This document shows positions 44,701-45,042 of a DNA stretch of 64,000 nucleotides, piece after piece. Made by a program: the position numbers and the translations under genes. Under the pieces are notes generated by a model. The model saw nothing but the letters and a program-made list of their open reading frames with translations, was not told the DNA's origin and ran no database searches. How positions within the stretch are numbered: position 1 is the first letter of the stretch; the number at the start of each line of letters is the position of its first letter. Source of the stretch: Escherichia coli (GTDB lineage Bacteria; Pseudomonadota; Gammaproteobacteria; Enterobacterales; Enterobacteriaceae); assembly GCF_017348835.2 (NCBI RefSeq), contig NZ_CP071375.1. The stretch is one strand, 5' to 3'.

Positions 44701-45042
44701 TACATGCATCCTTACAAAAATTATATGAAATTAATATTGCGAGCGGATATTACTCAAAGTTTTTGGAGGATGTAATAGGGGTGAGTTATCACGGATGTGA
44801 ATATATTTATGTGGTGTATTGAATTGTTGTTATTTTAGGTTGTTTAAACAAAAAATGCCTAATTTATTTGCATGAAGTGCTATTTCATGAATGAATTAAA
44901 AAAAACTAAAATGTAAATTAAGTATATTTAATATGTAAGGGGGGAAGTGAGGAGTAAGATAAGAAAATAATTTTTTCTTGGTGGATGAAATAGCCGTATC
45001 ATTTTGTATTCCTCTCGTCAAGAAAATAAAATAATACAGCTA
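44701..45042 (-). promoter_or_regulatory. AT-rich upstream control region of the yad fimbrial operon
   Basis: ~340-bp AT-rich non-coding tract (A/T runs, curved-DNA-like) directly upstream of yadN. Confidence 0.5.

Follow-up and report, generated by a model that had tools for sequence, protein, structure and literature searches.

An AT-rich, probably H-NS-silenced promoter region upstream of a divergent Yad-type fimbrial operon in Escherichia coli

Described fimbrial operons and the panB-folK locus

The lpf operon of E. coli O157:H7 has an AT-rich upstream region, is expressed at a low level in the laboratory, is functional when transcribed from a foreign promoter and is relieved of silencing by antagonists of the SlyA/Ler type. 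For lpf, as for the ycb/elf, sfm and yeh operons, H-NS control has been documented individually, whereas the H-NS dependence of the allele described here is deduced. Korea et al. 2010, as cited in later work, describe the same pattern for ycb/elf, sfm and yeh: each has an AT-rich upstream region and low laboratory expression, gives functional fimbriae when a foreign promoter is supplied, and is subject to silencing that is relieved by antagonists such as SlyA or Ler.

The yad operon of K-12, yadN-yadV-htrE-yadMLKC, lies between panB and folK and is cryptic and H-NS-repressed, with ArcA and SlyA described as regulators. Each of three ChIP-chip studies found H-NS bound to the gap between its yadN and folK genes, which is listed as promoter island 156927_379; yadN itself is listed as H-NS-bound and is raised by SlyA overproduction. 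At CFT073 yad, H-NS binding was observed by ChIP-seq, and a yad promoter-lux fusion was more than 100-fold up in an hns deletion mutant (Ellison et al. 2026, PMC13245861). Experiments in K-12 and in the ExPEC strains CFT073 and EC958 have shown the equivalent region to be bound or repressed by H-NS. In published comparisons of E. coli strains, H-NS binding stays conserved while the upstream regions that it occupies diversify.

The window analysed here, a 64-kb stretch of E. coli DNA, carries at the same site a seven-gene chaperone-usher fimbrial operon on the minus strand, in the gene order panC-panB, fimbrial operon, folK-pcnB-gluQ-dksA. This order was taken from the RefSeq annotation of PE164, in which two separate stretches are 100% identical to the window, and from Pfam. 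Downstream of the gap the Pfam domains are Fimbrial, PapD_N/C, Usher/PapC and Fimbrial (adhesin-like), so that the operon, between panB and folK, consists of a major subunit, a chaperone, an usher and then four subunit/adhesin genes, the same order as in K-12. The major-subunit gene (44107-44700, minus strand) encodes a 197-residue protein with a Pfam Fimbrial domain that is 88% identical to its O157:H7 counterpart and 41% identical to K-12 YadN; for the chaperone, the usher and YadC the identities to K-12 are 60%, 60% and 26%. The name yadN, which had been given to this gene from the sequence alone, is therefore right as to position but not as to sequence, the usher also being only 60% identical.

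The literature is in conflict over the name of this allele. Ellison et al. 2026 (PMC13245861) required for Yad an usher at least 80% identical to HtrE, defined against EC958, and scored phylogroup E, including O157:H7, as Yad-negative; the window usher, at 60% identity to HtrE of both K-12 and CFT073, would fall below that threshold. The O157:H7 locus Z0146-Z0152 was treated as yad by Gonyar et al. 2024, Elpers & Hensel 2020 and Wurpel et al. 2013, the last of whom used locus position and usher clade as the criterion and on that basis assigned the O157:H7 locus to Yad. EHEC "yad" has thus been studied in some reports while phylogroup E is Yad-negative in another. The window operon is most likely a divergent Yad-type (gamma4) chaperone-usher operon.

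In a blastn alignment with K-12 the window is 93.5% identical as far as 37595, a point 13 bp short of the panB start codon, and 98% identical from 45083 on, 40 nt inside folK. Between these points the alignment was confined to parts of the usher and chaperone genes, at 66-71%, and no collinear similarity of the DNA between folK and the major-subunit gene to the K-12 or CFT073 regions was found. The CFT073-type gap is a diverged relative of the K-12 type. Relative to K-12, then, positions 37596-45082 (minus strand) form a divergent allelic cassette that comprises the seven-gene operon (47.0% GC), both flanking non-coding regions and the 3′ end of folK. By these alignments the window allele appears to be an unstudied one that is not homologous to those in which H-NS was tested.

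The window-type gap was found by sensitive blastn in 423 of 5426 complete E. coli genomes, in every case on the chromosome, and at full length in 92 of the 423. A megablast search with the query extended 100 bp into each flanking gene gave 436 genomes, with at most two matching places per genome. The K-12-type region occurs in 3056 genomes, that of the CFT073 type in 481. Strains of O157:H7, 86-24 and Xuzhou21 among them, have the window-type gap minus 59 bp (44971-45029), a segment flanked by 10-bp direct repeats, TTATTTTCTT, at 45029-45020 and 44970-44961. As Escherichia sp. E1V33 and O145 retain the segment, the difference is a deletion in the O157:H7-type genomes. Strain FDAARGOS_943 is also without the segment. 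In the O157:H7-type deletion genomes the folK stop has moved by one codon, from TAA to TAT-TAG. In strains 130 and 131 the gap is split near window position ~44799, and genes for a Mu transposase C-terminal domain and a helix-turn-helix protein occupy the place of the fimbrial genes, which suggests that a Mu-like prophage or transposable element was inserted in the AT-rich region.

Base composition and candidate promoters

The gap between folK (45043-45522, minus strand) and the operon runs from 44701 to 45042, exactly from the folK stop codon (reverse complement of 45043-45045) to the start codon of the major subunit (reverse complement of 44698-44700). Its 342 bp contain 126 A, 29 C, 67 G and 120 T on the plus strand, which is 28.1% GC (71.9% A+T), against 51.9% GC (48.1% A+T) for the whole window and 49% GC for the coding flanks of the gap. 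The sequence-only reading had marked a strongly AT-rich stretch of about 340 bp with long A/T runs at this point; its coordinates proved exact, and the computed GC contents bear it out, as do A/T-only runs of up to 14 bp and the presence of A8, A6 and T6. The lowest GC content of any 342-bp stretch in the 64 kb, 27.5% at 44692, belongs to the same region. Only 0.036% of such stretches are as low in GC as the gap, and every one of them overlaps it. The sole other site in the window below 36% GC is the divergent intergenic region between aroP and pdhR (9383-9922), second in AT-richness with a minimum of 31.6% GC, the K-12 counterpart of which likewise figures among the published promoter islands and carries an H-NS flag there.

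TpA steps make up 11.7% of the gap compared with 4.4% of the window, and 11 A/T tracts of at least 4 nt are present. The gap thus shows what is expected of an H-NS-bound region, namely high A+T over several hundred bp with dense TpA steps and A/T tracts. No A-tract phasing or curvature at ~10.5 bp was detected in it, the AA/TT periodicity power being 0.68 against 0.61 ± 0.30 in shuffled sequences, 33% of which reach 0.68. The fimbrial genes had been described from the sequence as an AT-rich block beside GC-normal core genes; their GC content is indeed lower, but the operon is only modestly AT-rich (47.0% GC versus 53.6% for folK-dksA).

The gap is the sole non-coding DNA upstream of the first operon gene and must therefore hold the operon promoter and 5′ UTR. 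Four blocks within it, CCCCTnTTACAT, CTTTnAGTAATrT, ATTAAT and TTTTTGTAAGGAT, are kept in all relatives as far as E. albertii, and the 10 nt separating the first two are variable. Conserved blocks with a variable spacer are the pattern expected of -35 and -10 elements, and two overlapping candidate promoters fit it. The first, Pa (44747-44776, minus strand), has the -35 hexamer ATTACA (44776-44771), an 18-nt spacer and the -10 hexamer TAATAT (44752-44747). Both of its hexamer blocks are conserved in E. albertii and its spacer is variable; transcription from it would start near 44740. The second, Pb (44728-44757, minus strand), is the top-scoring sense-strand sigma70 match, with TTGAGT (44757-44752) and TAATTT (44733-44728) separated by 18 nt and a predicted start near 44721. 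A Shine-Dalgarno sequence, AAGGA (44709-44713, minus strand), lies 8 nt upstream of the ATG within the invariant block TTTTTGTAAGGAT. In the distal part of the gap, the heptamer CCTTACA within the C-rich element CTTCCCCCCTTACA (44934-44953, sense) is complementary to TGTAAGG across the Shine-Dalgarno sequence (44697-44716), 217 nt downstream, and in long or read-through transcripts the pairing could hide the ribosome-binding site; no conservation of CCTTACA was seen in E. albertii.

Promoter-like sites are numerous throughout the gap. With 24 sigma70-like sites scoring at least 6 bits it exceeds every other 342-bp tile (the others have a mean of 2.7 and a maximum of 21), as counted by our own position-weight-matrix scan and not by the PlatProm of Panyukov & Ozoline 2013. 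The gap has the dense promoter-like sites on both strands over ~300-400 bp by which promoter islands are recognised (Panyukov & Ozoline 2013). A consensus promoter scan of the gap passed one site only, the distal TAGGCA-18-TAAAAT (44832-44861, minus strand), against 2.4 expected in shuffles, so there is no excess over composition, and the excess of promoter-like sites is explained by composition. The highest-scoring sigma70-like match in the gap is antisense (45004-45032, plus strand; TTGTAT, 17-nt spacer, TAAAAT; 12.9 bits) and points into folK. As most of it falls in the segment that O157:H7 has lost, it is probably spurious and of the kind that is suppressed by H-NS.

Silencing, expression and termination

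The case for silencing is one of composition and position. Every allele of the gap that was examined has 25.6-30.6% GC and 10-12.5% TpA, against 4.4% TpA for the window. The K-12 yadN-folK gap resembles that of the window in its position, its length (369 bp), its base composition (26.6% GC, 11.1% TpA) and its dense promoter-like sites, but the two have no collinear homology and the downstream proteins are only 26-60% identical. The CFT073/EC958 yad promoter is likewise at the same locus and extremely AT-rich (25.6% GC in CFT073), but the CFT073 type is not alignable with the window type. Because the gap is not collinear with the K-12 and CFT073 regions, the published H-NS results do not transfer to it by homology; because the alleles share composition and not sequence, H-NS silencing here is strongly suggested by analogy. 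In this sense the earlier proposal of an H-NS-silenced promoter is partly supported, with positional equivalents in K-12, CFT073 and EC958 that are H-NS-bound or repressed and have the same composition, but it cannot claim homology to them. We judge the probability that the gap is the promoter and H-NS silencer region of the fimbrial operon to be roughly 70%.

No match to the high-affinity H-NS motif TCGATAAATT (Lang et al. 2007) was found in 44701-45042 with up to two mismatches. The K-12 and CFT073 regions, although bound by H-NS, do not contain it either, so that its absence, shared by proven alleles, says little. No ArcA box was found in the gap at up to three mismatches. For the O157:H7-type allele, no H-NS ChIP or hns-mutant data were found in the literature, the EHEC Pch/H-NS ChIP supplements included.

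In the mechanism proposed, one or more sigma70 promoters and a short 5′ UTR would occupy the proximal ~80 bp. H-NS, with StpA and Hha, would bind the 72% A+T, TpA-dense gap and polymerise across the promoter, holding transcription low until a signal or antagonist arrives. From other alleles the candidates for relief are SlyA, ArcA, temperature and serum; for the window allele in its O157:H7 version they are ethanolamine and acid. The weak promoter-like sites on both strands would be by-products of composition and would be quieted by H-NS in the same way. The operon body of the window is less AT-rich (47.0% GC) than that of K-12 (42.4%) or CFT073 (43.2%), and spreading of H-NS into it may therefore be weaker.

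Expression data from carriers of the O157:H7 form bear on how tight such silencing would be. In O157:H7 all yad genes are transcribed from their native promoters under laboratory conditions; in ethanolamine medium no other fimbrial locus is expressed as highly as yad, which responds to ethanolamine and is reportedly acid-induced. The description of the operon as cryptic, made from the sequence alone, was too strong, since O157:H7 transcribes the locus with the 59-bp-deleted allele and does so in response to ethanolamine and, reportedly, acid. These observations could be taken to mean that the gap holds an ordinarily regulated promoter with no meaningful H-NS silencing, its expression set by signals of the ethanolamine or acid type and its AT-richness an inherited composition; an operon body less AT-rich than that of K-12 and a gap without an H-NS nucleation motif would agree with this. 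Such a reading is, however, improbable. The 72% A+T and 11.7% TpA over 342 bp match the alleles at this locus that are proven to be H-NS-bound, and a locus under H-NS control can still be expressed at a detectable level or be inducible, as yad of CFT073 is by serum and in infected tissue (Ellison et al. 2026, PMC13245861). Moreover, yadN of O157:H7 Xuzhou21 is lower in the presence of a plasmid encoding homologues of StpA and Hha, an indirect observation and the only one that concerns this allele itself.

The gap has a second role to be considered besides that of promoter and silencer region. As folK and yadN are on the same strand, the same 342 bp also form the 3′ untranslated tail of the pcnB-folK mRNA. 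A consensus scan of the gap detected no canonical intrinsic terminator after folK. The sense RNA of the gap has 67 C and 29 G, and its plus-strand GC skew of +0.40 is among the top three of 1274 tiles. Between 44737 and 44996 (minus strand) the sense transcript is C-rich and G-poor, most 78-nt windows having 19-31% C and 1-8% G, and resembles a rut site; the rut-like bias is weaker in the K-12 and CFT073 regions, where the C/G ratio is ~1.5. Directly after the folK stop an AU-rich hairpin with a 15-bp outer stem (44991-45042, minus strand) is followed by UUUCAU and is weakly terminator-like. It is dispensable, as it lies mostly within the segment that O157:H7 has deleted. The K-12 pcnB-folK operon has been described as Rho-terminated, a statement that appears to be based on the lack of an intrinsic terminator.

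The RNA of the gap thus has the sequence properties by which a Rho-dependent terminator is recognised, that is, at least ~80 nt of untranslated C-rich, G-poor RNA without an intrinsic terminator. From the missing intrinsic terminator, the C-rich and G-poor RNA and the K-12 description together, the chance that the gap acts as a Rho-dependent terminator of pcnB-folK seems to us about even. Such a terminator would insulate the silenced fimbrial operon from housekeeping read-through.

The same three observations, with a C over G bias of the sense strand so extreme that it ranks among the strongest skews of the window, could be pressed further, to the view that termination and insulation of pcnB-folK are the main role of the gap and that the G depletion of its transcript strand was shaped by termination and not by silencing. 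We consider this unlikely. About 80 nt suffice for a rut site, which leaves 72% A+T over 342 bp and the density of TpA steps unexplained; the bias is weaker in K-12 and CFT073; and the operon promoter must lie in the gap in any case, where termination would complement H-NS silencing and not replace it.

An unannotated small gene or small RNA in the gap is very improbable. Two small open reading frames are present on the minus strand, of 41 aa at 44896-45021 and of 24 aa at 44928-45002, and the RNA of the gap folds better than shuffled sequences (z-score -2.9). Both frames, however, begin within the 59 bp that most carriers lack; a single hairpin in these dispensable 59 bp accounts for most of the folding signal; no Rfam match was found, a scan at permissive E-values giving one chance snoRNA hit (E = 0.86); and the distal part of the gap is not conserved in E. 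albertii.

The fim (fimS) and pap (Dam/Lrp) operons also have a non-coding control region upstream of the major-subunit gene on which H-NS acts, but the window gap, unlike these, has no recombinase, conserved inverted repeats or GATC sites. A phase-variation switch, whether fim-like and invertible or pap-like and dependent on Dam/Lrp, was effectively refuted: the perfect 9-nt inverted repeat (44716-44724 and 44967-44975, 242 nt apart) that looks superficially like fimS is low-complexity AT sequence that is not conserved and loses part of its right arm in the O157:H7 deletion, 397 of 436 genomes match in one collinear piece and give no hint of an inverted form, GATC is absent throughout 43802-45234, no recombinase or PapI/PapB-like gene is nearby, and Yad is stated not to be phase-variable (Ellison et al. 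2026, PMC13245861).

Exchange of the allele between lineages

Yad has been described as core-associated and ancestral, with Salmonella Sta occupying the same site (Wurpel et al. 2013). When one genome per species was scanned with the chaperone sequence, Escherichia sp. E1V33 and E. albertii proved to have the same allele, adjoining folK in both. In E. albertii the homology is limited to the proximal ~106 bp of the gap, at 69% identity, and the gap is less conserved than its coding flanks. In E1V33 the gap is 98% identical to that of the window, whereas the flanking coding sequence is 90-95% identical. Between E. coli GF66.1 and E1V33 the gaps are identical and the chaperone genes 97.5% identical. 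The identity of E. coli to E1V33 is 97-98% for the chaperone and ~92% for pcnB (window versus E1V33), and the structural genes of the window are ~10% diverged from those of all other relatives. Purifying selection was rejected as the cause of the 98% identity of the gap to E1V33, as the identity matrix is that of a recombination mosaic. The alignments point to a fairly recent interspecies exchange of the fimbrial allele.

One boundary of the exchanged DNA lies within an essential gene. Since K-12 homology stops at 45083, the last 13 codons of folK belong to the variable cassette, and with this recombination boundary inside the last 40 nt of the gene the C-terminal tail of FolK is specific to the allele class: the last 13-18 residues (window 45043-45095) are QILHTRAFDKLNKW in K-12, EALQAKGFNELDKW in CFT073 and KILIESDASRPELW in E. 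albertii, and are different again in the window. At the other end, the gap between the yadC-like gene and panB occupies 37583-37718. As K-12 homology resumes only 13 bp before panB, the DNA upstream of panB, and with it a possible panB promoter, differs between allele classes.

Taken together, these comparisons describe the locus as ancient, recombining and hypervariable, whole alleles being replaced by recombination, including between species. The sequence-only reading had suggested an old horizontally acquired island. The site is indeed ancient and core-associated, being occupied in Salmonella (Sta), E. albertii and a cryptic Escherichia species, but its variation is one of allelic replacement and not of insertion.

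The gap itself is probably functionally ordinary, an AT-rich, H-NS-silenced fimbrial promoter region of a well-known kind. At least three versions of it, difficult to align with one another apart from a weak relationship between those of K-12 and CFT073, exist at the locus, all with ~26-28% GC and more C than G on the transcript strand. We suggest, tentatively, that the gap may be a module, silencer and insulator in one, in which composition and not sequence is preserved, and that it travels as a cassette with the fimbrial allele and the last 13-18 codons of folK. The K-12 and ExPEC H-NS results should not be carried over untested to the O157:H7-type yad, which is a different allele with an unrelated promoter region. 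If the cassette proposal is correct, adhesin-plus-regulation units would be swapped among E. coli lineages and even between Escherichia species, with H-NS silencing and insulation by Rho in place from the moment that a new allele arrived. The locus would then be a natural example of silencing that is preserved through composition while sequence, adhesin specificity and the tail of the essential folK gene are exchanged.
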